A stretch of DNA of 64,000 nt from Oxobacter pfennigii (GTDB lineage Bacteria > Bacillota > Clostridia > Clostridiales > Oxobacteraceae): assembly GCF_001317355.1 (NCBI RefSeq), contig NZ_LKET01000039.1, forward strand, positions 350,574 through 414,573, written 5' to 3'. This document shows positions 845-64,000 of the stretch, piece by piece. A model generated the notes under the pieces. The model searched no databases. It was not told where the DNA came from and worked only from the letters and a program-made list of their open reading frames with translations. Numbering within the stretch: position 1 is the first letter of the stretch; each line of letters begins with the position of its first letter. The translations under genes were made by a program, and so were the position numbers.

Positions 845-1030
845 GTTACCACTTAGCACTATCATATTTAATATGATTCTATTCACTGCTACTCGACTTA
901 GAAGCTGTAAACTCGGCTTCGGGCTGCACCATAAATGTTATTGCTCAAACAATGGCGCAGCTATTCTACGCCTCGTTAACAGCTTTTCTACAGCCACTTC
1001 GCAATGTTCCTTTCATCATATCAAATATCA
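845..1030 (-). repeat. Dispersed intergenic element family A, copy in minus orientation
   Basis: The reverse complement (GATATGATGAAAGGAACATTGCGAAGTGGCTGTAGAAAAGCTGTTAACGAGGC...GAGTTTACAGCTTCTAAGT) aligns to the copies at 18895, 53738 and 58214. Confidence 0.55.
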
Positions 1031-4931: not shown

Positions 4932-5609
4932 TTGTTCAATAAGATAGTATGTATAGGTGATAGTATTACCAAAGGTAAGGTATGGAAAGAAAATGAGCGA
5001 AAGCCTTATATTACTGAAATGTCTTATCCGAGTATACTGCAAAAATTATTATGTGTTGATGTGAAAAACTATGGCATATGTGATATTACAAGCCGGCAAA
5101 TCCTTGAAAATATACCGGGTATTAGGGACTTTAACAGGGAAAGTGCTGTAATACTTGAAATTGGCGGAAACGATTGCAACCTGAACTGGAAAAATATTAA
5201 GAGAAATCCTCATGGAAGTCATGAGGCGGCAATACCTTTGGAGGGATTTAAAAATAATCTTCAAAAAATTGTTGATACTGTGAAAAACTTTGAGTGTGCC
5301 CCGCTTATTTGCACACTTCCGCCCCTTGACCCCGACAGGTATTATAATCTGCTAAAAAGAGTTTTTGGAGAGAGTATAAAGCTATGGATAGATAAAAACG
5401 GAGGAATATTTAACTGGCAGGAGAGATACAGCAATGCAGTTAAAGAAATTGCCAAAAAGACCGGTGCATATCTTATAGACATAAGGGAAGCATTCCTAAA
5501 TACAGTGGACTACAGAAAATACATAAGTATTGACGGAATACACCCTAATGAAGACGGTTACCATTTAATAGCACGGACATGCCTTGATGCATTGAAGTCT
5601 ATATTTTAA
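4932..5609 (+). CDS. SGNH/GDSL-family hydrolase
   Basis: GDS-block (CIGDSITKG), GGNDC block and the DGIHPNEDGYH catalytic His block. The start is uncertain: TTG 4932 follows AAGGTGGTGG, with alternative upstream starts at 4863-4920. Confidence 0.7.
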   Translation: MFNKIVCIGDSITKGKVWKENERKPYITEMSYPSILQKLLCVDVKNYGICDITSRQILENIPGIRDFNRESAVILEIGGNDCNLNWKNIKRNPHGSHEAAIPLEGFKNNLQKIVDTVKNFECAPLICTLPPLDPDRYYNLLKRVFGESIKLWIDKNGGIFNWQERYSNAVKEIAKKTGAYLIDIREAFLNTVDYRKYISIDGIHPNEDGYHLIARTCLDALKSIF

Positions 5610-5753
5610 TTTAACCCTTTATACTTATTTGTAAAACAGCATAATCGGATACTTTACAAATAAGTACAACCGGTTAAATTATTGCTGTGCTTATACCCGA
5701 ATGCTTACCCGAAATAATGACAAAATAATATGTAAGAAGCATATATTGGGGGC

Positions 5754-7982: not shown

Positions 7983-8029
7983 ATATAACAATAATAAACT
8001 AACATCAGTGATCAGGAAGAGTAGATACA

Positions 8030-8332
8030 TTAACTGAGTCCCAGCGATTCCGGGGCAGTGAAAGCCGGATACTTAAGCGTGTATTGAATGGACCTGTAAG
8101 ATGGCGTGCGAAAGTTATGGTAGCATAGCCCGGGAGTCAGCCGTTACAATGAACAGGGTATCGAGGAATCCGTACCTTAGAAGAGCGTTTTATATTTTGG
8201 TGGCATAGCGAAATTCAGCATTTCGTCCTTAATGGATGAAATGCTTTTTTAATATAAAACAAAAATGGGTGGCACCACGAGTCACTTCGTCCCATATTCA
8301 GACGAAGTGGCTCTTTTTATTTGGTCCAGATT
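8030..8332 (+). promoter_or_regulatory. T-box riboswitch leader (probably Trp-specific) with intrinsic terminator
   Basis: T-box motif AAAUGGGUGGCACCACGAG at 8271-8291. Terminator CACTTCGTC/GACGAAGTG plus a U-tract at 8293-8332. Candidate specifier GAAUGGA at about 8113. It sits upstream of trpEGDCFBA. Confidence 0.7.
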
Positions 8333-8464
8333 TTTGAACTCAGGAACACTAGTGTAACTGTAATATGTGCTTGGCTGCAAGGCAGAAGAATATTCAGAGG
8401 GTAGTACTAATGTACCGATGGTCATTTGACTGCAAAGAAGCGACAAGCGAGCTTTTAAGGAAAG

Positions 8465-8660
8465 GAGCTGTTGCATTTGAAACAACGTAAATGAGCATTG
8501 TGAGAGTTCTCTCTAAAGTTCTTGGTGACTCTGCCAAAGATATTACTTAGAATTTTAGATTGTTTGAGCGAATGAAGTTTAAAAATTCTTGTATTTTCAA
8601 GGCAGGAAACCTTAGAACTTGCGGAAGTCGAACACAGCGAATTGAGTGTTCAAAATGCAA
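8465..8660 (+). repeat. Dispersed element family B, copy 1 (inverted relative to the copy at 53228-53420)
   Basis: About 85-90 percent nucleotide identity to the reverse complement of 53228-53420. It lies between the T-box terminator and trpE. Confidence 0.55.
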
Positions 8661-8823
8661 CAGCCCCAATTTATGGCGGGGGCGGCCGTTAAAATCAGGA
8701 AGATTTTCGACCGGAAAGCTTTTTGCAATCAGATGACAGAGAAAAGGTACTAAGCCCCGGAGCAGTTCGTTTGCCTGCAGCAAACACAAAATAAATATTG
8801 AAATTTTATGGAGGTGAGTGTTT

Positions 8824-18894: not shown

Positions 18895-19082
18895 GATTGA
18901 TATGATGACTAAACATTGCGAAAGGACTGTAGAAGCTGTTAATGAAGCAAGGATAGCTGCTCCGTTGTTTGGGCGTAAGTGAGTTATGGCGATAAGTTGG
19001 AGACATTCCTCAACAAAGAAGGAGTGCCCCCATTCCTTGAACAGCCGAATCTACAGATTCTAAGTACTGTAGACGTGAATGG
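18895..19082 (+). repeat. Dispersed element family A, long copy
   Basis: GATTGATATGATGACTAAACATTGCGAAAGGACTGTAGAAGCTGTTAATGAAGC ... GAGACATTCCTCAACAAAGAAGGAGTGCCCCC ... CTAAGTACTGTAG. Confidence 0.55.
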
Positions 19083-19118
19083 AGTTATATCAAACCTGCA
19101 AATAAAAGGGGTGATTAT

Positions 19119-20218: not shown

Positions 20219-20399
20219 TACATTGTGCCGGATTAATGTGGTATAATGATTTGAAATGGCGCAGCCATTTGAAATCATTGCGATATGAATTTTACGCAGT
20301 AAAATTCATGACATGATGATTCCTAATAGCGATACCGTTAGGAATCATTTTAATTTAAGCAGGTATTATATAGAGAAATAAGGAAGAGAGGGATTTGTC

Positions 20400-22630: not shown

Positions 22631-22734
22631 CTGAAATTATAAAAATACAATCTATACTTGTAAGAGACACCATTTAATAATATAATTATATATAGAATGG
22701 AATTGAGTTCTCATAAAAATAAATAAAATTGTCA

Positions 22735-22972
22735 GGTACATGCATGTATAATAGGGAAAGCGGTGAAAATCCGCTGCAGCCCCCGCTACTGTATACGGCG
22801 ACGAAACCTAATTCCACTGGCGTTATCGCTGGGAAGGAAGGTGGAGAAAGACCCGTTAGCCAGGAGACCTGCCTGAGATTAAAAGTCCTTCGGAGGGAAG
22901 GTAACACCTATGCTATTTTTTGGCACATGGATTTTATTACTAAGCCCTCGCTTGAAGTGAGGGCTTTTAATT
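22735..22972 (+). promoter_or_regulatory. cobalamin (AdoCbl) riboswitch with intrinsic terminator
   Basis: GGTGAAAATCCGCTGCAGCCCCCGCTACTGTA ... GTTAGCCAGGAGACCTGCC conserved blocks. Terminator AAGCCCTCGCTTGAAGTGAGGGCTTTT at 22942-22968. Confidence 0.8.
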
Positions 22973-23526: not shown

Positions 23527-23552
23527 TAATGGTTTATAAATTCTCGCATTTT

Positions 23553-23613
23553 GCCAGCTTGATATGATGAAATGAACATTGCGGAGCTGTGAATGAAATC
23601 ATATCAAGCTGGC
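23553..23613 (+). repeat. Family A minimal copy: 16-bp stem GCCAGCTTGATATGAT/ATCATATCAAGCTGGC enclosing the AACATTGCGGAGCTGTG core
   Basis: Perfect 16-bp inverted repeat around the family core. It lies between cbiX and hemA. Confidence 0.5.
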
Positions 23614-23641
23614 ATGGCGGTGAACGTTGGAGATGATTGAT

Positions 23642-24835
23642 ATGATTCAGCTTATTGGAGTTAATGATGAGGATGTGTGTATACGCGAAAAACTTTCGAT
23701 AATACCGAAGCATCTGGAGGATGCATTGAAAAAAGCTGCCGAGCTGTGCGGGGAGGCGGCCATAATAAGTACCTGCAACAGGACCGAAGTGTATTTTAAT
23801 TCTACGAGAACTGGGGACGGCATCATAGAATGCATTTTTAACTGTTTAGGCTGGGATAAGGAATTGATAAAGTACACTATCTACAAATGCGGAGATGAGG
23901 CAGTGCGTCATTTGATAGAAGTAACCTGCGGAGTGCATTCAAGGATATTGGGAGAAGAGCAGATATTAGGCCAGGTAAAGGACGCCTATGATTTGGCACT
24001 TAAAAATAAAACCATAAAAGGGGAACTTGACAGGCTTTTTCATACTGCAATAACCTGCGGCAAGGAATTTCGCCATAAATCAGAGCTTGATAAAATTCCG
24101 GTATCATCAGCTTCCATGGTAATACGCGAGGCAAGGAAAAGAAGCTTAAAAAGATTCATGGTCTTAGGCTATGGCGAAGTAGGAAGTTTGGCCTGTAAAT
24201 ATATTTTAGAAGAACCCTTTGATGTTTTATACATAGCCGTCAGAGATACAAGTGTTGTGGATATTAAGGATAGAAGAGTAAAAGTCATCCCTTTTAGAGA
24301 AAGAAAAGAATATTATCCAGATGTGGAATGCATAATATCCTGTACTTCGGCTCCTCATACAGTAATAAATTCAAATGAGCTTCCAAACAGAAAGCTCATG
24401 ATATTTGATATGGCGGTTCCTAGGGATGTGGATTGGGATGTCAACGGTATTAACGGTAACGAAGTTTACGATATAGATATGATAAGCGCATTGTTTGATG
24501 AGAGTCTTGAAAAGAGAAGGAAAATCCTTGAAAATTTCAGACATCTTATTGAGAAGCACATACAGGAATTTGAAAAATGGCAGAATTTAAAAAAGCTTTC
24601 ACCCTATATAAAAAGGATGAAGGAAAACGGAGAACAGATTTATAAACAAAGAAGCACTGCCTTTAGGAATAAAAGGCATACAAAAGATAATGAGAACCTT
24701 GCAGACATTCTTATAAAAAGTACGGCAGATGTATATGTAAACAGGGCTATAGAAGTGCTGAAGGAAGAATATTTAGAAGGCAGGGGAGAAGAATGCCTCA
24801 AGATAATAGAAAAGATATTTCTGATAAAATGCTAG
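23642..24835 (+). CDS. hemA: glutamyl-tRNA reductase
   Basis: HemA N-terminus (IQLIGVN...STCNRTEVY). About 400 aa. Confidence 0.85.
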   Translation: MIQLIGVNDEDVCIREKLSIIPKHLEDALKKAAELCGEAAIISTCNRTEVYFNSTRTGDGIIECIFNCLGWDKELIKYTIYKCGDEAVRHLIEVTCGVHSRILGEEQILGQVKDAYDLALKNKTIKGELDRLFHTAITCGKEFRHKSELDKIPVSSASMVIREARKRSLKRFMVLGYGEVGSLACKYILEEPFDVLYIAVRDTSVVDIKDRRVKVIPFRERKEYYPDVECIISCTSAPHTVINSNELPNRKLMIFDMAVPRDVDWDVNGINGNEVYDIDMISALFDESLEKRRKILENFRHLIEKHIQEFEKWQNLKKLSPYIKRMKENGEQIYKQRSTAFRNKRHTKDNENLADILIKSTADVYVNRAIEVLKEEYLEGRGEECLKIIEKIFLIKC

Positions 24836-33349: not shown

Positions 33350-33570
33350 AATATCCCCCCTTAAAAGAAGCAGCTAATTTATTATGCTAAGAAAGCGAAC
33401 ATATTTATTATGATAGAAGGTATTAAAGAAAATGATCTTAAATATGGTTTTGTGCAGGCCCCTATTTAATTATAATCATAAAAGGTGAGTCCAGTCCACA
33501 AAATCAGCACAATTTAAAAGCAGATTTGCCCACGTCTACTTGATATAAATATTTTAAAGAGAAAGTAGGA

Positions 33571-33745
33571 TGAGCCGTCCCGTATTTTGTCAAAGAAAAA
33601 ATAGAATGAACCGTCCCTGTTGTTATGAACCGTATTTTGTCAAAGAAAAAATAGAATGAACCGTCCCTGTTGTTATGAACCGTCCCTGTTGTTACTGCTG
33701 TTGTTAAAAGAAAAAGTGGAGTGAACCGTCCCCTATTGTTATAAT
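33571..33745. repeat. tandem direct repeats (about 50-bp unit x 2.5, then a degenerate copy) containing 5 copies of the (A/G)TGAACCGTCCC / ATGAACCGT motif
   Basis: Unit GAACCGTATTTTGTCAAAGAAAAAATAGAATGAACCGTCCCTGTTGTTAT repeated. It lies in the divergent intergenic region of nfeD-floT and the NUDIX gene. Confidence 0.7.
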
Positions 33746-33766: not shown

Positions 33767-34429
33767 ATGGACAAAAAAGGGCTGGATGATATGATAAAGA
33801 ATCTTACTGAAATTCCGGGCATACTGGATAAAGAGCTGTACCATAATTCCGTTGTATTGATACCTTTGGTTTTTATAGGTGGGGAATATCATCTATTATT
33901 TCAGATGAGAAATTTTAATATAAGACAGGGCGGCGAGGTGTCCTTTCCGGGGGGAATGTACGACCCGACAGAGGATGAAAGCCTTGAAGCAACAGCTATA
34001 CGCGAAACCTATGAGGAGATGGGCATTCCCAAGGATAAGATAAAGATAATTGGACGCCTTGATACAATGGTTGCTCCTATGGGCATTACCATTGATTCTT
34101 TTGTGAGTCTAGTGGACATAGGGGGCACTGATGAATTAATAATCAACAAAAATGAGGTGGAGTACGCATTTACCGTTCCTGTATCCCATTTTGAAAACAG
34201 CCAGCCGGAGAAATATAATACCCGCGTTATGATAGAATCTTCCTACATGGATGAGGAAGGCAGAAAAGTGACTCTTCTTCCGGCAGAAGAATTAGGCCTG
34301 CCGGAGCTTTACTACAAGTCCTGGGGCAGAAGAAATTACGAAATCCTCATATATAGATACAAAAATGAAATGATATGGGGAATGACCGCAAGGCTTGTAT
34401 ATGAAGTTGTAAAAAAGCTGAAGCGATAG
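33767..34429 (+). CDS. NUDIX hydrolase
   Basis: Nudix box GGMYDPTEDESLEATAIRETYEEMGI. Confidence 0.75.
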   Translation: MDKKGLDDMIKNLTEIPGILDKELYHNSVVLIPLVFIGGEYHLLFQMRNFNIRQGGEVSFPGGMYDPTEDESLEATAIRETYEEMGIPKDKIKIIGRLDTMVAPMGITIDSFVSLVDIGGTDELIINKNEVEYAFTVPVSHFENSQPEKYNTRVMIESSYMDEEGRKVTLLPAEELGLPELYYKSWGRRNYEILIYRYKNEMIWGMTARLVYEVVKKLKR

Positions 34430-34477: not shown

Positions 34478-34690
34478 GCCAATGAATCTTCAGGGCAGGG
34501 TGAGCAATTGAATACTTACGTATTATTTTGCATTTCCCGACCGGCGGTACAGCCCGCGAGCTTTTAATTAAGCAGATCCGGTTTAATTCCGGAGCCGACA
34601 GTAAAGTCTGGATGAAAGAAGGTTGTGTTTACCTTGTATTTTTCTCCTGAAGTTCTTCAGGAGCTTTTTATTTTTCAGGATTTTTTTCTT
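34478..34690 (+). promoter_or_regulatory. FMN riboswitch (RFN element) with intrinsic terminator
   Basis: CTTCAGGGCAGGGTGA...TTCCCGACCGGCGGTA...AGCCCGCGAGC...CCGGAGCCGACAGTAAAGTCTGGATG conserved blocks. Terminator CTCCTGAAGTTCTTCAGGAG plus a U-tract. Confidence 0.8.
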
Positions 34691-39577: not shown

Positions 39578-39653
39578 AGGGGCATGGCTCAATTGGTAGA
39601 GTAGTGGTCTCCAAAACCATTGGTTGTGGGTTCGAGTCCTACTGCCCCTGCCA
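39578..39653 (+). tRNA. trnW: tRNA-Trp (CCA anticodon)
   Basis: AGGGGCATGGCTCAATTGGTAGAGTAGTGGTCTCCAAAACCATTGGTTGTGGGTTCGAGTCCTACTGCCCCTGCCA. Canonical cloverleaf, anticodon loop CUCCAAA. Confidence 0.9.
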
Positions 39654-47146: not shown

Positions 47147-47509
47147 ATGTTTTTCATAGGAATTTTCGGCATTCAAAATAAAGTAAAAGAATTAAAGGAA
47201 TTCACTGATGTCTGCTGTTCCTGCGGCAAATACTCCAGGATGAAATTGCTTTATGAATATAATTGCTTTCATATTTTTTTCTTGCCCTTGTTTAAATGGG
47301 GGAGAAAATATTTTCTTGAAGCCAGATGCTGCAGAAGGGTCTTTGAGGTGCCTGACAATTACATAGACGAACTTTTAGAGGCTGATACTGTGGATTTTAG
47401 CAGGCTCACAGAAATTAACATGCCATACACATTATGTCCAAACTGCAGAAATTACGTGGATTCAGGATATAAATTCTGTCCCAACTGCGGCAGCAAACTG
47501 AAGCTTTAA
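47147..47509 (+). CDS. zinc-ribbon-containing hypothetical protein
   Basis: CCSCGK...CPNCRNY...CPNCGSK ribbons. GGGGGAAAGG RBS. Confidence 0.45.
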   Translation: MFFIGIFGIQNKVKELKEFTDVCCSCGKYSRMKLLYEYNCFHIFFLPLFKWGRKYFLEARCCRRVFEVPDNYIDELLEADTVDFSRLTEINMPYTLCPNCRNYVDSGYKFCPNCGSKLKL

Positions 47510-47617
47510 AACTTGTAAATAAATTATTAAACAAGTATTGATTTTTAATGTCAGTTATTATAGAATAATAACAGCAATAGCAAAGGTGAACGTTTTTAAT
47601 AAAACTGAATATAAAGT

Positions 47618-47790
47618 TCGCCCGTATATACCCGGTAATATGGTCCGGGTGTTTCTACCAGACTGCCGCAAATTGTCTGACTATGGGTGTTTGTAAGCAT
47701 AATGCATAAAATGTTCAGATTTATTTCGTGTTGCTACATACAATATTTGCTTGTAAACTCCCTTATTTTTCATAAGGGAGTTTTATCTTT
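47618..47790 (+). promoter_or_regulatory. purine riboswitch, guanine-specific (C at the specificity position), with intrinsic terminator
   Basis: CCCGUAUAUACCCGGUAAUAUGGUCCGGGUGUUUCUACCAGACUGCCGCAAAUUGUCUGACUAUGGG. Terminator AAACTCCCTTA...TAAGGGAGTTTT at 47755-47790. Confidence 0.8.
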
Positions 47791-52238: not shown

Positions 52239-53174
52239 ATGGATTATATAGCATCCTTTTTTGCCGCAGCAATTGTGGCAGGCACTCCTCTTTTATTTGC
52301 TACCTTAGGTGAGATAATAACCGAAAAAGCAGGCCTTACTAACTTAGGTGTTGAAGGTATGATGCTCATGGGAGCCGTAGGCGGCTTTCAGGCCGGGCTT
52401 TTAACCCAGAACCCGGTTATCGCAATTTTATCAGGAGCCCTTGGCGGAATGATAGGAGCATTGATATTTGCATTTTTGACCATAGAGCTTCGCGTAAACC
52501 AGATTGTTTGCGGACTGGCGCTCAGTATATTCGGTGAGGGCTTTGCAAGCTACATGGGTAAAATTCTGGGGGGGAAAATGGTACCTCAGGCCCTTAAGGC
52601 ATATTTCATGCCCTATAAAATACCACTTTTAGGTGATATCCCATTCCTGGGAAGAATTTTCTTCAGCCAGGATCCTTACATCTATTTAGGATATATAATA
52701 GCAATACTATTAGGGCTATATCTTTACAAAACCCGGCCCGGCTTAACTTTGCGCTCCATCGGCGAAAACCCCGGAGCAGCCGACGCCGCGGGAATTAATA
52801 TATCAAGATATAAATACATTCACACACTTTTAGGCGGTGCCTTATCAGGGTTAGGCGGTGCTTACCTCTCCTTGGTATACGTTCCTGCATGGCAGGAAGG
52901 CATAACGGCAGGAAGAGGCTGGATAGCCGTAGCCCTGGTTATATTTGCAACCTGGAACCCTTACAAAGCAATTTTAGGCTCTTACCTTTTCGGCGGCTTA
53001 GACATCATAGGCTTCAGATTGCAGGGCACAAAATTTGCAGTATCCCAGTACCTTATCGATATGCTTCCCTACATGGTAACCATATCCGTACTGGTTTTCG
53101 TTTCACTGAAAAAATCAAAGGACAACTCCCCTCCCGCGGCCTTGGGAACCCCTTACTTCCGCGAAGAGAGGTAA
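52239..53174 (+). CDS. ABC transporter permease (NupQ-like)
   Basis: Polytopic, coupled to the upstream permease. Confidence 0.8.
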   Translation: MDYIASFFAAAIVAGTPLLFATLGEIITEKAGLTNLGVEGMMLMGAVGGFQAGLLTQNPVIAILSGALGGMIGALIFAFLTIELRVNQIVCGLALSIFGEGFASYMGKILGGKMVPQALKAYFMPYKIPLLGDIPFLGRIFFSQDPYIYLGYIIAILLGLYLYKTRPGLTLRSIGENPGAADAAGINISRYKYIHTLLGGALSGLGGAYLSLVYVPAWQEGITAGRGWIAVALVIFATWNPYKAILGSYLFGGLDIIGFRLQGTKFAVSQYLIDMLPYMVTISVLVFVSLKKSKDNSPPAALGTPYFREER

Positions 53175-53182
53175 CAAATTTG

Positions 53183-53207
53183 GGGATACAACTTTAGTTG
53201 TGTCTCC
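53183..53207. repeat. REP-like hairpin copy 2 (GGGGATACAACTTTAGTTGTGTCTCC), 9 nt after the permease stop
   Basis: Same palindrome as 790-813. Its two substitutions keep pairing as G-U wobbles only in the + strand transcript. Confidence 0.65.
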
Positions 53208-53227
53208 TTACACTTTTACGCTGAATT

Positions 53228-53420
53228 TTGAACACCCCTCTCGTTGTGTTCCAGTTCTGAAAGTTCTAAGGCTCCCTGCCTTGAAAATGCAAGAATTTTT
53301 AAACTTCCTTCCGCTCAGACAATCTAAAATTCTAAGCAATATCTTTGGCAGCGTCGCCAAGAACTTTCAAAGAACTCTCACAATGCTATGGCGTTGTTCA
53401 AAATTCAGCGTCCTAAAATG
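53228..53420 (-). repeat. Dispersed element family B, copy 2 (inverted relative to 8465-8660)
   Basis: The reverse complement aligns to 8465-8660 at about 85-90 percent identity. Confidence 0.55.
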
Positions 53421-53737
53421 TACATCTACAGCCTCTGACTATATTAACAGCAGTCAGGGGCTATTTACGTTGTATTCCTTTCCATATACAAGTTTGCTAC
53501 TTTGGATATAATTGAATATAATAAATACTGATATCATTTCAAGCTTTTGACTGTATTAATTGCCATCTAAACGGAATTGTGTAGAATCTATATAGAACAA
53601 GCAAATGAAAATTGCTATGATATCAGTAAAGACGGAGTTATAGCGGAATGTTCATGTGGCTGTTAACCTCTATACTTGGGTTAGAGTGTAAATGATGTTT
53701 GTTTATAAATAAAAGAATCTTTAAAGTTGAGATGGCG

Positions 53738-54068
53738 TGATATGATGAATGGACATTGCGAAAGGACTGTAGAAGCTGTTAACGAAGCGGAGGAAAGCTG
53801 GAGTCATTATATGAGTGATAGAGATGTTTATAAGAAAGATTAAAATAATCTGACTTTATAATTTATGTAACTTCTGCCTTCATTTGCAAAGCTGGAAATA
53901 ACAAAGCTGGAAATAATAGCGTAAAGGCCGTGTTTCTGTTAGCGAAGTACATGAAGCATAAGTCATTGTCTGAGCGATAGCGTATAAATTGAGGACATTC
54001 CTCAATAAAAAGAGGAGTGTCCCCTAACCTTAAACATACGAGTTTTACAGACACTAGGAATTAGAGCG
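53738..54068 (+). repeat. Dispersed element family A, long mosaic copy
   Basis: GTGATATGATGAATGGACATTGCGAAAGGACTGTAGAAGCTGTTAACGAAGC ... ATAAGTCATTGTCTGAGCGATAGCG ... GAGGACATTCCTCAATAAAAAGAGGAGTGTCCCC ... GAGTTTTACAGACACTAGGA. It shares 5-prime and 3-prime blocks with 18895 and 58214. Confidence 0.55.
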
Positions 54069-54116
54069 TAATTGACGGCTTAAAAATGAAAACAGAGGGG
54101 TAAGGAGAGAACTAAA

Positions 54117-55139
54117 ATGGAGAGGAAAGATTATGTTGTATTGGGGATAGAGTCAAGCTGCGACGAGACCTCGGCGGCAGTTGTTAAGGGCGGCAGAGAG
54201 CTCCTTTCAAATATAATATCGACACAGATAGAGCTGCATAAAAAGTTCGGAGGAGTAGTGCCGGAGGTAGCGTCAAGGAAACATGTGGAGCTTATAAATG
54301 TGGTTATACAGGAAGCCTTGGATAAAGCGGGAGTGACCCTTAATGATGTGGATATTATAGGAGCGACTTACGGGCCTGGACTGGTAGGAGCCCTTTTGGT
54401 AGGGCTTTCGACGGCAAAGGCACTAAGCTTTGCTGCAAAGAAAAAATTTGTAGGCGTAAACCACATAGAGGGCCATATATGTGCTAATTTTCTGGCACAT
54501 AAAGAGCTGGAGCCTCCTTTTGTGTGTCTGGTGGTGTCAGGAGGCCATACCAATATAGTTTACATCGAAGATTACGGAAAATTTGAAATAATGGGAAGAA
54601 CCAGAGATGACGCTGCAGGAGAAGCCTATGATAAAATTGCCAGGGCATTGGGACTGGGCTATCCGGGAGGTCCGGTAATTGATAAACTGGCGCTTCAGGG
54701 CAACAAGGATGCCGTTAACTTCCCCAGAATAAACCTTGATAAAAGCCTTGATTTCAGCTTCAGCGGATTAAAGACCTCTGTTTTAAATTATATAAATAAG
54801 CTTAATATGGTAGGCACAAAGATAATAGTTGAGGATGTTGCCGCAGCCTTTCAAGAGGCGGTGGTGGACGTTCTTGTGGATAAGACAATAAATGCCGCCA
54901 TTTTGAAAAAAAGCAAAATAATTGGAATTGCCGGCGGAGTTGCGTCAAATTCAAGACTGAGAGAAAAATTCATGGAGAAGGCTAAGATACACGATATACA
55001 AATATTTTTTCCACCTCCCATATTGTGCACCGATAATGCAGCTATGATCGCTTCGGCAGCATATTACGAATATGTAAACGGAAGGGAATCGGATATGAGT
55101 CTTAACGCAAACCCTTCATTAAGGCTGGGTCAGCGGTAA
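54117..55139 (+). CDS. tsaD: tRNA N6-adenosine threonylcarbamoyltransferase
   Basis: Kae1/TsaD N-terminus ([16 protein letters not shown]) and metal-binding H..H. Confidence 0.9.
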
Positions 55140-56755: not shown

Positions 56756-56901
56756 CACTAAAAAGCCATTTTACGGCAATTTGTAAATTTATAAACATAA
56801 AAATTTTTATTTTTATAAATTTTTTTATTTAATTATGGAGGAAATAGTAAATTTTTGAAGAATATTACCATAATTATAAAAATTTACAAGGGGAATATGT
56901 C

Positions 56902-58149
56902 ATGGACTTCAATGATGAAAACTCGGCAATAATGTTTGAATTATTAAGCAACATTTTATTTTATCCGGCACCCATTGGAAAGTCAGATGAGATATATACT
57001 ATGCTTTTAAGGCAATTCATAACCGCCTTCAAAGGCGAAATGGGTTTCATGCATTTGTTCAAAAACAGCAGCCTTAAGCTGGACGAGGACCTTATAACAT
57101 ACTACAATGTTCCCCGGGATTACATGGATATATTGATTCGCAACAAGGATAAGGTTTCTATAGAATTGGACAAAGTATTTTCACAGGGTAAATGCTATCT
57201 TTTAGATGAGAACGGTGGAAGTCAATATGAATTAAATGCCATGAGGAAGAAATATAAAATTGTATATTCCGTTACTGTGCCCATGTGGCTGGAAGATAAA
57301 CTGACAGGGATAGTATATATTGCCTCAACAAAGAAAAATTTTGCCTTTGAAGACCGCATAGATTTCATGAAGGATTGCTGCAACAGGGCAGCAGCCGTTC
57401 TTAAAATACGCGCTGAATTTTTTTCCATTTATGACAGCCTTCTTCATGTGGAAAAAATGAATGCCTTAAACGTATTGACCGGCGGTATCGCCCATGAGTT
57501 TAACAATGTGCTGACTCCTATCCTGGGATTTTCACAGATGCTTATTAAAAAGCTGGATGATCCCAATTTAAAAATATATGCCCAAATGATAGAACAAAGT
57601 GCCAGGGACGGGGCTATGATTGTCAAAAGGGTAAATGAATTCACTAGAAAAGAGGCGGCTGGAGAAAAAGAACCCTGTGATATAAACGATTTGATATTAA
57701 AGAGCATTTACATGGTTCATCCCCAGTGGAAGGAAGAAGAATTGACTGCAGGTAAAAAGGTTTCGATATACACCGAATTAAAGGCCAGCGGGTATGTATA
57801 CTGCAACTGCTGTGAAATCAGGGATGTAATAACCAATCTTCTCATAAACGCCTTCGATGCTATTGAAACCACAGGCAAAATAACAGTAAAAAGCTGGGAT
57901 GAGGACGACAACGTATGCTTTGTTATAGAGGACGACGGCATAGGCATGAGCGATGAAGTCTTGGAAAAAATATTCACGCCTTTTTTCACTACTAAAACCA
58001 AGAGAGGCACCGGTCTTGGCCTATCTATCGCCCACAACATAATCGCCGGCTATTTCGGCACTATCAACGCTTACAGCATCCCCGGCTACGGCACCCAAAT
58101 GGTCGTCAAACTCCCCCTTTATAATCCACCGGCACATGATGCAACCTAG
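56902..58149 (+). CDS. cytoplasmic sensor histidine kinase with N-terminal GAF-like domain
   Basis: HisKA H-box (GIAHEFNNVLTPILG) and HATPase_c G-boxes (EDDGIGM, GTGLGLSIA). No TM helices and no adjacent response regulator. Confidence 0.75.
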   Translation: MDFNDENSAIMFELLSNILFYPAPIGKSDEIYTMLLRQFITAFKGEMGFMHLFKNSSLKLDEDLITYYNVPRDYMDILIRNKDKVSIELDKVFSQGKCYLLDENGGSQYELNAMRKKYKIVYSVTVPMWLEDKLTGIVYIASTKKNFAFEDRIDFMKDCCNRAAAVLKIRAEFFSIYDSLLHVEKMNALNVLTGGIAHEFNNVLTPILGFSQMLIKKLDDPNLKIYAQMIEQSARDGAMIVKRVNEFTRKEAAGEKEPCDINDLILKSIYMVHPQWKEEELTAGKKVSIYTELKASGYVYCNCCEIRDVITNLLINAFDAIETTGKITVKSWDEDDNVCFVIEDDGIGMSDEVLEKIFTPFFTTKTKRGTGLGLSIAHNIIAGYFGTINAYSIPGYGTQMVVKLPLYNPPAHDAT

Positions 58150-58213
58150 ACTGCTTAGAAAAAATAAGCTTATCAAACTTAGGGGATTAAGTACAAACTA
58201 ATGTACCAGCAGA

Positions 58214-58437
58214 TATGATGAACAAAACATTGCGCAGTGACTGCAGAGGCTGTTAACGAGGTAATTTTGCATAGTCTATTAGTAACGAAGACTAGTAGAT
58301 GTGATAGTAAGCCAAAAGAGATAGCGGAATGTCCGTGTGCCTGTTAACGAAGGACAGGCAACATAAGTCATTGTTTGAGCGATAGCGAGTTATGACTTAT
58401 GTCCTGGCCGAGTTTTACAGACACTAGGACATGCAGC
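58214..58437 (+). repeat. Dispersed element family A, long copy
   Basis: AGATATGATGAACAAAACATTGCGCAGTGACTGCAGAGGCTGTTAACGAGG ... ATAGCGGAATGTCCGTGTGCCTGTTAAC ... ATAAGTCATTGTTTGAGCGATAGCG ... GAGTTTTACAGACACTAGGA. Confidence 0.55.
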
Positions 58438-58466
58438 GTTCTGAAGGTTTACTATCAATCGCATTG

Positions 58467-62350: not shown

Positions 62351-63301
62351 ATGAAAAAAATTAATTCCAGGGTTCCTATAGCAGTACTCATATCAGTAAT
62401 GTTAATATTTTTAAATATTTCCATAATAAGATACGTGAGAGAAATTACAGGAAATAATATAAAAAGTGTAATGGGCGGTACAATAATCAAGGAAGGATTA
62501 TTCGGGCTTGAAGTTTTTGATGGGGCCGACAGTAAAAAGGAAGATGATTACATACAGAGATTCTTTCGGCCGTCAAAGGAAAAAGTAATGGATAAAAAGT
62601 ATTTTTTTAACAAGGAAGGGGCTGAGCTGCCTAAAGTATTTCAGGCATCCAATGATGTAGTCAGGGCATATTTTGATATTATAAGCGATGCAGCCAATAT
62701 GGGAAGCAAAAAAGGAGGCATGGGAAGCATAGGATACGGCACCGCACCTTATCCCGAAGCCTATAAGCTTTTGTCCGAGGATAAAAAGAAAGCCATGACT
62801 TATGAAAGCTTCCTTAAATCCTTTGAAAGTATAGGTCATATCAATCTTTTAAAAATGGCCGAAGGCCCTTCGGTAAAATCAGAAAACAGCATAAGCCCGC
62901 GGTATTTTGTGGAGATTGAGACAATAGAAGGCTCCGACACATTGGGCAAAACCTATTTTGCCTATTATTACGGTTATATAACGCTTAATCAAGACGGCAA
63001 TAACGGCTGGAGGATACATTCCATAGAGCTTATCCCTGAGGATTTCTTATCCCATGCATATCACGGGTGGCATCATGATGCCAATTCTATCGTTAAATTT
63101 ATCTATGGAGATAAGCTTAATATAGTTGACAAAGTCCTTAATATGGAAAATGACGGATATTTCAGCAACATAATTGCAAAGGGCAAGGACGGAAAGCAGT
63201 ACAGGTTCACCTTTATTAGAATCACTAACGGAGCGGATATACCCTTCCGCCAGTTTGTAATGGATGAAGGTAAGTGGAAGGATGTAGAAATTAATTTTTA
63301 A
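62351..63301 (+). CDS. membrane-anchored hypothetical protein
   Basis: N-terminal signal anchor, 316 aa, no recognised domain. An RBS is present. Confidence 0.5.
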   Translation: MKKINSRVPIAVLISVMLIFLNISIIRYVREITGNNIKSVMGGTIIKEGLFGLEVFDGADSKKEDDYIQRFFRPSKEKVMDKKYFFNKEGAELPKVFQASNDVVRAYFDIISDAANMGSKKGGMGSIGYGTAPYPEAYKLLSEDKKKAMTYESFLKSFESIGHINLLKMAEGPSVKSENSISPRYFVEIETIEGSDTLGKTYFAYYYGYITLNQDGNNGWRIHSIELIPEDFLSHAYHGWHHDANSIVKFIYGDKLNIVDKVLNMENDGYFSNIIAKGKDGKQYRFTFIRITNGADIPFRQFVMDEGKWKDVEINF

Positions 63302-63415
63302 ATTTTAATGAAATTTTTTAAAAAAGGTATTGATTTTTTATTCACTATCTATTAAAATAAAAACATCGAACGGATAATTATTATTAATAAAGAAAATATA
63401 TTTGGAGGTATAATT

Positions 63416-63922
63416 ATGAAAAAGTGGAAATGCGGAGTTTGTGGTTATGTTCATACAGGAGCAGCTGCCCCTGATAAATGTCCGGTATGCGGAGTACCCG
63501 GATCAAAATTTGCTGAAATTACAGGTGAAGAGGGTAAATCCTTAAAAGACTATGTAAACGCCCAGATTGAAGGTGAAACCTGGGAAGTAACACATTACTT
63601 AGCAGCAGCCCTTTTGGCCGATAAATTGGGATATGCAAATGTAGCAGAAACTTTCAGGACCATAGCAATGGAAGAAGCATACCATGGAGCAAATTACCTT
63701 TACAGAAGCGGTGAAATCGGAAAGACCAAGGAAGATCTTAAGGAATTCGTGGCCAAAATGATTGAAGCGGAAAAAGGTGCTCATAAGATGAAGACAGAAG
63801 GGTTCTCCCTTGCGTTGTCAGAAGGGCAGGACGAATTGGCAGCATTCTTCAAAATCTCAGCAGAAGATGAAGCAAGACATGCAAGCATGTGGTCCTGGGC
63901 ATATAAAGAACTGGAAAAATAA
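63416..63922 (+). CDS. reverse rubrerythrin (N-terminal rubredoxin-like, C-terminal diiron ferritin-like domain)
   Basis: CGVCGY...CPVCG rubredoxin motif at the N-terminus, then E..H diiron ligands. Confidence 0.85.
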   Translation: MKKWKCGVCGYVHTGAAAPDKCPVCGVPGSKFAEITGEEGKSLKDYVNAQIEGETWEVTHYLAAALLADKLGYANVAETFRTIAMEEAYHGANYLYRSGEIGKTKEDLKEFVAKMIEAEKGAHKMKTEGFSLALSEGQDELAAFFKISAEDEARHASMWSWAYKELEK

Positions 63923-63972: not shown

Positions 63973-64000
63973 CGGGACACAACTTTAGTTGTGTCCCGGT
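63973..64000. repeat. REP-like hairpin copy 3 (CCGGGACACAACTTTAGTTGTGTCCCGG), 50 nt after the rubrerythrin stop, at the window edge
   Basis: 12-bp perfect stem, same core as 790-813. Confidence 0.65.

Follow-up and report, generated by a model that had tools for sequence, protein, structure and literature searches.

Palindromic repeats of Firmicutes have been described mostly from streptococci, enterococci and bacilli, and BIMEs are clusters of alternating REP units. The ERIC, Correia and RUP families are imperfect palindromes of ~100-160 bp that are flanked by TA or another target-site duplication, and several families of this type are known to possess a partner insertion sequence, or sites for IHF, promoters or RNase. 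BOX elements of S. pneumoniae and S. suis are made up of boxA, variable boxB or boxD modules, and boxC. Their lengths lie between 67 and 637 bp, and the stem is made by boxA together with boxC (PMC3049150). The pneumococcal repeat SPRITE resembles a rho-independent terminator and is located just 3' of stop codons (PMC3049150), and REPs are short GC-rich stem-loops (PMC3184786). MITEs have a size of ~50-800 bp, lack a transposase gene, carry terminal inverted repeats of at least 10-15 bp, are flanked by a target-site duplication of 2-10 bp, occur as dispersed copies and have a partner insertion sequence (PMC3184786, PMC11602168). Bacterial palindromes of the MITE type are often co-transcribed with their neighbours and can alter mRNA stability (PMC3184786, PMC10969869).

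The window analysed here, which means the whole 64-kb stretch of DNA, originates from Oxobacter pfennigii, and the TsaD and TrpE proteins encoded in it are 100% identical to proteins of this species. O. pfennigii is a clostridial acetogen, and the draft genome of its strain DSM 3222 comprises 4.49 Mb (PMC4669397). The interval under study comprises the 942 bp from the last permease gene of a nucleoside-type ABC operon (52239-53174, plus strand; Pfam BPD_transp_2, E = 9.8e-33) to the essential gene tsaD (54117-55139, plus strand; Pfam TsaD, E = 6.5e-98). According to Pfam, the operon encodes Pribosyltran, Bmp/PnrA-like and ABC ATPase proteins and two permeases, and a purine riboswitch is located ahead of it at 47602-47703. 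The tsaD start at 54117 fits the 340-aa O. pfennigii protein (100% identity, 100% coverage), and the ribosome-binding region GGGGTAAGGAGAG was read directly from the plus strand at 54097-54109. The interval is probably a normal junction between the ABC operon and tsaD that was inflated by dispersed repeats of three unrelated kinds, each hairpin-forming and restricted to the lineage, which inserted independently of one another. An earlier note on this DNA had described a gene-free mosaic of repeat modules; its observation of repeats is partly confirmed and its interpretation partly supported.

The comparison of orthologous gap lengths, which had been proposed as a check, argues for insertion: the distance from the permease gene to tsaD is 212 bp (L081), 225 bp (L085) and 118 bp (L086) in three syntenic relatives (TsaD 75-78% identical), compared with 942 bp in O. 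pfennigii, in a comparison that covers distant species only (TsaD at most 78% identical). The intergenic DNA of the relatives has only a terminator and promoter core in common with the O. pfennigii interval. A hairpin at 53430-53462 (plus strand) that has an 11-bp stem (-17.3 kcal/mol, z = -3.7) and a T-rich tail behind it is predicted to be the ancestral terminator of the ABC operon; the terminator of a further relative, L082, aligns with it over the 3' half and tail, and that of L085 is similar to it. Two overlapping sigma-70-type promoter-like sites, TATACA-16-TATAAT and TTGCTA-17-TATAAT, are found at 53485-53522 of the plus strand and match the consensus at 10 of 12 positions each. For four of the five relatives the best local alignments of the intergenic DNA fall at 53456-53545 and share TGGnTATAATTGA, and the two sites are predicted to represent the ancestral tsaD promoter. 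By comparison with the relatives, the ancestral terminator and a putative tsaD promoter occupy the centre of the gap, with repeats on both sides. The stretch from ~53423 to 53640, which contains both, is unique, as is 53791-53915, and repeats cover roughly two thirds of the interval, so that the claim that it is built entirely of repeat modules goes too far.

The statement that no gene is present was borne out. The longest ORF of the interval (103 aa, 53200-53511) shows no Pfam match and no homologue among 5.8 billion proteins, and the smaller ORFs match no Pfam family. No gathering-score match to Rfam 15 was obtained for the interval or for two other family A copies tested; the best chance matches were eukaryotic miRNA and snoRNA models with E >= 0.025, and none reached E = 0.01. 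Plasmid and phage searches by blastn with the interval returned no match, and no transposase is encoded within the window. Three kinds of repeats were found, with three copies of a short palindrome, two of a family B and five of a family A per 64 kb. All are intergenic and located at gene or operon borders, in line with the earlier description.

The first repeat downstream of the permease gene is a GC-rich palindrome with a pyrimidine-rich tail (53182-53222, plus strand), a terminator-like module. Its 26-bp stem-loop GGGGATACAACTTTAGTTGTGTCTCC at 53182-53207 matches 789-814, the pair of sites seen before, and additionally 63973-63998; shuffled sequences gave no match. The likeness to the copy at 789 extends to 53222 (80% over 41 nt). 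All three copies are located on the coding strand 8-51 nt past a plus-strand stop codon, the one at 63973-63998 being 51 nt past that of the ORF 63416-63922. The RNA hairpins have predicted energies of -15.7 to -23.8 kcal/mol (z = -4.5 to -8.1). The position just downstream of stop codons is as in SPRITE, and as a short GC-rich stem-loop the palindrome resembles REP/PU. In contrast to SPRITE, its tail is pyrimidine-rich but too T-poor for a simple terminator rule, and a simple terminator scan did not call it. Unlike SPRITE and REP families, it is known from only three copies, in the 64-kb window, and it was absent from the loci of relatives that were searched. It also lacks the alternating clusters of BIMEs: each site carries a single 26-bp palindrome, and the remaining modules are two unrelated long palindromic elements, which speaks against the BIME-like mosaic that had been suggested.

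Family B is a 214-bp imperfect palindrome with the ends GCTGAATTTTGAACA...TGTTCAAAATTCAGC that extends from 53209 to 53422, has no assigned strand and is self-complementary. As RNA it folds with -72.6 kcal/mol (z = -8.7). The core of its homology, 53222-53407, matches the reverse complement of 8472-8659 at 85% identity (E = 1.5e-46), which agrees with the description of this unit as inverted relative to the copy in the trp leader. The latter copy (8458-8672, minus strand; covariance model 226.9 bits) lies in the interval between T-box and trpE, and this distance is 526 nt in O. pfennigii compared with 37-54 nt in two relatives. A third copy was found upstream of tsaD in L001, an uncultured Clostridiaceae bacterium from a fermentation metagenome (TsaD 71% identical). 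In both organisms family B is positioned 50-70 nt ahead of the putative tsaD promoter, and the two tsaD-linked copies are oppositely oriented. Among the three copies, 18 of 64 stem pairs were changed on both sides, compared with at most four in slid controls, and 91% of cells are still paired, figures that rest on three sequences and on a structure derived from these same sequences. The copies differ by 1- and 2-nt indels. A pattern search for family B matched one metagenome contig, which is that of L001, and 0 viral contigs, and the covariance model revealed no additional copy in the 1.1 Mb searched.

Family A is present in the window in five copies of 49, 158, 197, 249 and ~350 nt, which have the termini in common and differ in their internal modules. 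The canonical form is a 158-nt rod hairpin with the ends TTGATATGAT...ATCATATCAA. A left-arm pattern gave exactly four matches, at 973-1022 (minus strand), 18899, 53739 and 58212, and none in shuffled sequences, so that the long family A unit reported for this interval is substantiated; a profile search added a fifth match, a mini copy, at 23550-23594. The shortest full-length copy, which represents the canonical form (868-1025, minus strand, 158 nt; termini TTGATATGAT...ATCATATTAA), adjoins the palindrome at 789-829 and forms a single rod-like hairpin of -63.5 kcal/mol (z = -7.6). The copy of 197 nt (18897-19093, plus strand) contains a module M2 and ends 25 nt ahead of the start codon of a PNPOx-like gene. 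The mini copy (23559-23607, plus strand, 49 nt; profile E = 1.5e-6) consists only of the termini and the inner arm ends and folds into a 17-bp stem that is almost perfect (-35.6 kcal/mol, z = -6.8). The copy of 249 nt (58210-58458, plus strand) contains a module M1 and is flanked by a histidine-kinase gene on one side and a convergent ABC-F gene on the other; at the DUF512/ABC-F junction of L081, L082 and L086 both family A and the histidine-kinase gene are missing. This copy was also considered as a TnpB/omega-RNA guide 3' of a 415-aa ORF, which was rejected as the ORF is the histidine kinase.

The copy in the tsaD leader (53737-54085, plus strand; profile E = 7e-20 and 9e-24) is long and degenerate and the most decayed of the family. 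It consists of the left arm (53737-53790, 89% identical to 18898-18959), a unique AT-rich insert with a 15-bp tandem duplication inside (53791-53915), M1 (53916-53982, 84% identical to 58321-58387), the hairpin module M2 (53989-54036; M2 with the right arm 71% identical to 18980-19081) and the right arm (54039 to about 54085), whose 3' terminus is decayed. The short block that had been reported as shared was found again at 53640-53667 (plus strand), 89% identical to 58321-58348, but with 28 nt only it is marginal alone (E = 0.004). This block matches an internal module of the long family A copies and represents an isolated fragment of M1; compared by eye with 53916-53943 it is about 71% identical.

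In the arms of family A, 79% of cells are paired, compared with ~35% in slid controls. A complex conserved RNA fold was rejected since the simple arm-to-arm hairpin explains the structure (RNAalifold only -6.9 kcal/mol, 16 pairs). A degenerate left-arm pattern gave 0 matches in viral contigs, GTDB species genomes and JGI metagenomes, collections that exclude the rest of the O. pfennigii genome, and the profile HMM gave 0 matches in 1.37 Mb of relatives' loci. In analogy to BOX, conserved terminal modules (~50-55 nt) that pair with each other surround variable internal modules, and the elements are intergenic and predicted to form a stable stem-loop if transcribed. Unlike BOX, family A has internal modules that do not repeat one unit in tandem, and the host is a clostridial acetogen; the likeness is one of architecture, and no sequence relationship is claimed.

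Families A and B are dispersed, palindromic, MITE-like repeats; the families are new and the phenomenon is well known. Sizes of 49 to ~350 bp for family A and 214 bp for family B without a transposase gene correspond to MITEs, as do the terminal inverted repeats of both families, with arms of ~55 nt in family A. The dispersal, with five and two copies in 64 kb, is that of MITEs as well, and the relatives lack the repeats at the tsaD, trp leader and DUF512/ABC-F sites, which again refers to distant species only. The target-site duplications that had been proposed as a check at the module edges were not seen: no consistent direct repeat flanks the five A and two B copies, which are old and have boundaries uncertain by a few bases. 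One family A copy has ATGATA on both flanks. Family B and canonical family A, imperfect palindromes of 158-214 bp with inverted ends that lack an ORF, are dispersed intergenically and would form a long RNA hairpin, also resemble ERIC, Correia and RUP, which differ in their flanking target-site duplications. In family B, the complementarity spans the full length and not the termini alone as in these families. Since no target-site duplications were found and no transposase is present in the window, we infer the mobility of A and B solely from their dispersal and from presence or absence between species.

According to the reading favoured here, the junction of the O. pfennigii lineage would have grown ~four- to eight-fold, from an original length of about 120-225 bp to the present 942 bp. 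The ancestral core would have comprised the terminator hairpin (53430-53462), the promoter (~53485-53522), a short 5' UTR and the ribosome-binding site. The palindrome module of 41 nt and the 214 bp of family B would have entered the stretch from the stop codon to the old terminator, and the decayed family A copy and the A-module fragment that from the promoter-proximal UTR to the ribosome-binding site. Family A, with two ~55-nt mutually pairing arms around variable internal modules, is BOX-like. Both A and B would be non-autonomous mobile elements of the MITE, ERIC or BOX kind, of which only intergenic insertions survived, and the gene for the enzyme that copies them would lie at another place in the genome. 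The palindrome and family B would lengthen the mRNA of the ABC operon at its 3' end, family A would be transcribed inside a tsaD 5' UTR of ~590 nt, and the long RNA hairpins (-63 to -73 kcal/mol) could change mRNA processing, stability or termination. By default A and B are taken as tolerated passengers; no result demonstrates a recruitment for regulation.

It is distinctly unlikely that family A is not mobile and acts as a cis-acting regulatory leader RNA, similar to a riboswitch or attenuator, for tsaD and other genes. Its left arm is very well conserved, it is strongly structured, and two of five copies (18897-19093 and 53737-54085) immediately precede a start codon in the sense direction, with the similarity of those two reaching almost to the ribosome-binding site. 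However, the copy at 868-1025 is antisense between two plus-strand genes, that at 58210-58458 is 3' of a gene and faces a convergent one, and that at 23559-23607 is a 49-nt stub within an operon. The downstream genes (tsaD, the PNPOx-like gene and a gene of a cobalamin operon) are unrelated, the tsaD leaders of relatives are devoid of family A, the consensus fold beyond the arm-to-arm pairing is weak (-6.9 kcal/mol), Rfam offers no match, and it is the tsaD copy that has decayed most. Unlikely, too, is the explanation of family B as a selected hairpin, e.g., an insulator or processing site, that has been kept upstream of tsaD since a common ancestor and is no recent insertion. The position 50-70 nt upstream of the tsaD promoter in O. 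pfennigii and L001, the changed and still paired stem positions, and the fact that B is recognisable where the flanking intergenic DNA is otherwise unalignable would fit with this explanation. On the other hand, the three closer syntenic relatives lack B, the two tsaD-linked copies are oppositely oriented, the L001 copy is at a contig end, as is common for repeats in assemblies, and the covariation comes from a weak sample of three sequences that also defined the structure. Moreover, the copy nearest to the one at tsaD within O. pfennigii is that in the trp leader (85%), which points to intragenomic spread.

It is highly improbable that the 940-bp block as a whole moves or recurs as a unit, be it a single composite non-autonomous element or a BIME-like cluster, as the earlier note had proposed. 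The module order given for 790-1030, a palindrome followed by family A, indeed occurs twice (789-1025 and within 53182-54085), but the A unit at 868-1025 is inverted relative to that at 53737, B is absent from the 789-1025 site, and no site has an alternating array of the short palindrome. A single composite element is unsupported because each module is also found by itself (family A at 18897, 23559 and 58210, family B at 8458 and the palindrome at 63973), the relative orientations vary, and unique DNA with the ancestral terminator and promoter lies between B and A. There is next to no likelihood that the interval hides a small protein gene or a type I toxin-antitoxin-like peptide, such as the frame MM(T/N)xHCERTVEAVNEA that begins in the A left arm. 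Two family A copies share this short frame for 16 codons; in the other three it is frame-shifted or stopped after 3-17 codons, indels shift the ATG-ATG frame between copies, no Shine-Dalgarno sequence precedes the ATG, and the Pfam and homologue searches described above yielded nothing.

For annotation, the preferred reading of independent repeat insertions means that long empty gaps and oversized leaders in O. pfennigii, as at tsaD and the trp operon, are repeat insertions and not missed genes or riboswitches. With this window, the known palindromic repeats gain two clostridial families, of which one is modular and BOX-like, and a repeat that resembles a terminator; the current understanding of palindromic repeats is unchanged. 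Highly structured inserts of 200-500 nt are apparently tolerated in the 5' UTRs of the essential gene tsaD and of a T-box-controlled operon, and such inserts would offer convenient natural tests of hairpin effects on mRNA fate. A role of B, and perhaps of A, as a hairpin under structural selection in clostridial lineages, beyond that of a mere passenger, is doubtful; the compensatory changes between species, the recurrence near the tsaD promoter in two species and the tolerance in the trp leader are what suggest it. If B were selected, it might serve as a transcriptional insulator or an RNase III processing site, or be the substrate of a single-strand DNA transposase that recognises hairpins and creates no target duplication. 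Two observations on family B would not be predicted for a pure passenger, namely its presence ahead of the tsaD promoter in another species as well and the many compensatory changes in its stem.

The 942-bp gap between the last permease gene of a nucleoside-type ABC operon (52239-53174) and tsaD (54117-55139; Pfam TsaD, E = 6.5e-98) is a mosaic, with lineage-specific insertions on both sides of an ancestral terminator-promoter core. The TsaD and TrpE proteins encoded in the window match those listed by NCBI for O. pfennigii at 100% identity along their entire length. The operon on the left starts with a purine riboswitch (47602-47703), followed by genes for a phosphoribosyltransferase, a Bmp/PnrA-like binding protein, an ABC ATPase and two BPD_transp_2 permeases, as assigned by Rfam and Pfam. 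Three metagenomic relatives with TsaD proteins 75-78% identical share the gene order Pribosyltran, Bmp, ABC, permease, permease, tsaD, DUF512 radical-SAM gene and convergent ABC-F gene with the window. The orthologous gap length, which the earlier note proposed to compare in order to date the insertion, is 212 bp in L081, 225 bp in L085 and 118 bp in L086, i.e., 118-225 bp in these syntenic loci compared to 942 bp here. The junction of each relative consists of a terminator hairpin with a T-tract, the promoter TGGnTATAAT and a short UTR. The intergenic DNA of five relatives was aligned locally to the whole interval, and for four of the five the best alignment, individually weak (z <= ~2.3), was found at 53456-53545. 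These alignments land on two overlapping promoter-like sites at 53485-53522 (TATACA-16-TATAAT and TTGCTA-17-TATAAT), and just upstream a hairpin with an 11-bp stem (53430-53462) resembles the terminators of the relatives. As alignments, promoter-like sites and terminator-like hairpin coincide, the ancestral junction survives in the middle of the interval, which is therefore not built entirely of repeat modules as originally described.

Three unrelated families of dispersed, hairpin-forming repeats account for the insertions, and they occur independently of one another and in both orientations. The short palindrome GGGGATACAACTTTAGTTGTGTCTCC at 53182-53207 recurs at 789-814, as the earlier note had claimed, and also at 63973-63998, with zero matches in shuffled sequences. 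Its RNA hairpin is stable in all copies (-15.7 to -23.8 kcal/mol), and the similarity between copies extends into a pyrimidine-rich tail on the 3' side (80% over 41 nt). All three copies are located 8-51 nt past a plus-strand stop codon; a simple terminator rule called no terminator.

Family B (53209-53422) is an imperfect palindrome of 214 bp, the RNA of which folds into one long hairpin (-72.6 kcal/mol, z = -8.7). Its inverted orientation relative to the copy in the trp leader was confirmed, as 53222-53407 aligns to the reverse complement of 8472-8659 at 85% identity (E = 1.5e-46), with 1- and 2-nt indels separating the copies. The trp leader itself is oversized: 526 nt separate the end of its T-box (7999-8297) from the trpE ATG (8824), compared to 37-54 nt in the relatives L088 and L089, and the inverted family B copy (8458-8672) lies inside this extra DNA. 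The tsaD pattern of a gap that is enlarged compared to relatives and holds a repeat copy recurs in the trp leader and around the family A copy at 58210. Besides family B, the extra DNA contains about 300 nt of unexplained sequence.

Outside the O. pfennigii window, pattern, profile and covariance-model searches revealed exactly one more copy of family B, in a 3.9-kb contig (L001, the same as L087) from the fermentation-metagenome MAG of an uncultured Clostridiaceae bacterium, with a TsaD 71% identical. It lies within positions 1-200 at the very edge of the contig, some 50-70 nt ahead of the tsaD promoter, and is inverted relative to the O. pfennigii tsaD copy, although that one also lies upstream of the tsaD promoter. 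The contig break at this copy suggests that family B is repeated in that genome too. Across the three copies, 18 of 64 stem pairs are changed on both sides while 91% of cells remain paired, and slid controls gave at most four such pairs; since the structure was derived from the same three sequences and the sample is tiny, these changes are taken as a lead and no proof of selection.

Family A is a real repeat as well, its left-arm pattern matching four places in the window and none in shuffles, and a profile HMM added a fifth copy. The shortest full copy (868-1025, minus strand) is a 158-nt palindrome with the ends TTGATATGAT...ATCATATTAA that forms a single rod-like hairpin (-63.5 kcal/mol, z = -7.6). 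The fifth, mini copy of 49 nt (23559-23607) keeps only the ends and inner arm edges in a 17-bp stem. Longer copies retain two arms of ~55 nt and differ by internal modules: M1 is common to the tsaD copy and 58210-58458, and the small hairpin M2 to the tsaD copy and 18897-19093. Over four copies, 79% of cells in the arms pair, compared to ~35% with the partner slid. At 53737 to about 54085, the tsaD copy exceeds all others in length and in decay; it carries both modules and 125 bp of unique, AT-rich inserted sequence that includes a 15-bp tandem duplication, and its 3' end can no longer be recognised. The short block listed separately in the earlier note exists (53640-53667 and 58321-58348, 89% over 28 nt), is marginal alone (E = 0.004) and is equivalent to one of the internal modules in the long family A copies. 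The left-arm pattern had no match in viral contigs, 185,579 species (one genome each) and JGI metagenomes, and the profile found none in 1.37 Mb of the relatives' loci.

A perfect 11-nt inverted repeat, 53525-53535 (ACTGATATCAT) and 53614-53624 (ATGATATCAGT), is similar to the family A terminus, from which it differs by one mismatch, and encloses ~78 nt of presumed tsaD 5' UTR. The 10-mer TTGATATGAT occurs exactly five times in the window; four occurrences are family A termini, and the fifth (23637-23646) lies 30 nt past the mini copy, around the start of the next gene, either by a target preference or perhaps by chance. The stretch 56902-58458, which separates the DUF512 radical-SAM gene from the convergent ABC-F gene, holds a 415-aa histidine-kinase gene and the adjoining family A copy at 58210. 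Both are missing at that position in L081, L082 and L086, where the junction holds nothing, and L085 has a 754-aa hybrid kinase there.

A hidden gene in the interval is contradicted: neither the longest ORF (103 aa) nor the smaller ones matched a Pfam family, and the former has no homologue among 5.8 billion proteins. As, in addition, indels shift the ATG-ATG frame in the family A left arm among copies and those of family B are 1 and 2 nt long, the interval is regarded as non-coding, in agreement with the first reading. None of the three repeats has a match in Rfam, and blastn against plasmids and phages gave no match. In size, inverted repeats, copy number (counted in the 64-kb window alone) and hairpin, families A and B are MITE-like and work like MITE, BOX and ERIC repeats; they are putative members of the MITE class, as no consistent target-site duplication was found at the repeat ends, where the earlier note had suggested looking. 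The results support an origin by insertion of elements of a well-known kind, while the families themselves appear to be undescribed and limited to O. pfennigii and, at most, a small number of relatives.

Of the inserted DNA, the short palindrome and family B (~245 bp) entered past the stop codon and ahead of the old terminator, and the family A copy with family A debris (~490 bp) entered downstream of the promoter-proximal UTR and ahead of the ribosome-binding site. A composite element or BIME-like mosaic, as first proposed, is contradicted by the independence of the modules, their occurrence in both orientations and the ancestral core. The supposed repetition of the order palindrome, then family A at 789-1025 holds for the presence of both modules, but family A is inverted there relative to the copy at 53737. 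It is conceivable that family A is a regulatory leader, as two copies directly precede start codons; however, one copy is antisense, one lies 3' of a gene and one is a stub, the downstream genes are unrelated, and family A is missing from the tsaD leaders of relatives. The most interesting alternative, that family B is an ancient functional element at tsaD, is weakened by its absence in three closer relatives, by the opposite orientation of the L001 copy and by the fact that the tsaD copy is more closely related to the one in the trp leader of the same genome.

We therefore favor insertion, with families A and B probably being, or having been, non-autonomous mobile elements whose copying enzyme is encoded elsewhere, and presumably confined to intergenic DNA by selection against gene disruption. 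By co-transcription, family B would extend the ABC operon mRNA at its 3' end, and family A would be part of a long tsaD 5' UTR. RNA hairpins of ERIC, Correia and BOX elements of other bacteria were shown to affect processing or stability (PMC3184786, PMC3049150), and by analogy those of families A and B may do so. The remaining novelty is whether the conserved family B hairpin is selected.

Elsewhere in the window, a cobalamin riboswitch (22717-22890), an FMN riboswitch (34482-34627) and a tRNA gene (39578-39650) reach Rfam gathering scores and are all ordinary. A 50-nt unit is present in four tandem copies, two of them identical, at 33544-33744 upstream of an ORF (33767-34429) and the FMN riboswitch. 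The intergenic self-complementary stretches 5607-5681 (75 nt, 77%), 20242-20352 (111 nt, 67%) and 56785-56822 (38 nt, 95%) may be terminators, or may each represent another palindromic repeat family by a single copy. Finally, 47496-47618, just upstream of and overlapping the purine riboswitch start, shows weak similarity (67% over ~125 nt, E = 6e-4) to 63288-63403 upstream of an ORF (63416-63922), which may represent a common promoter or leader, or another repeat.
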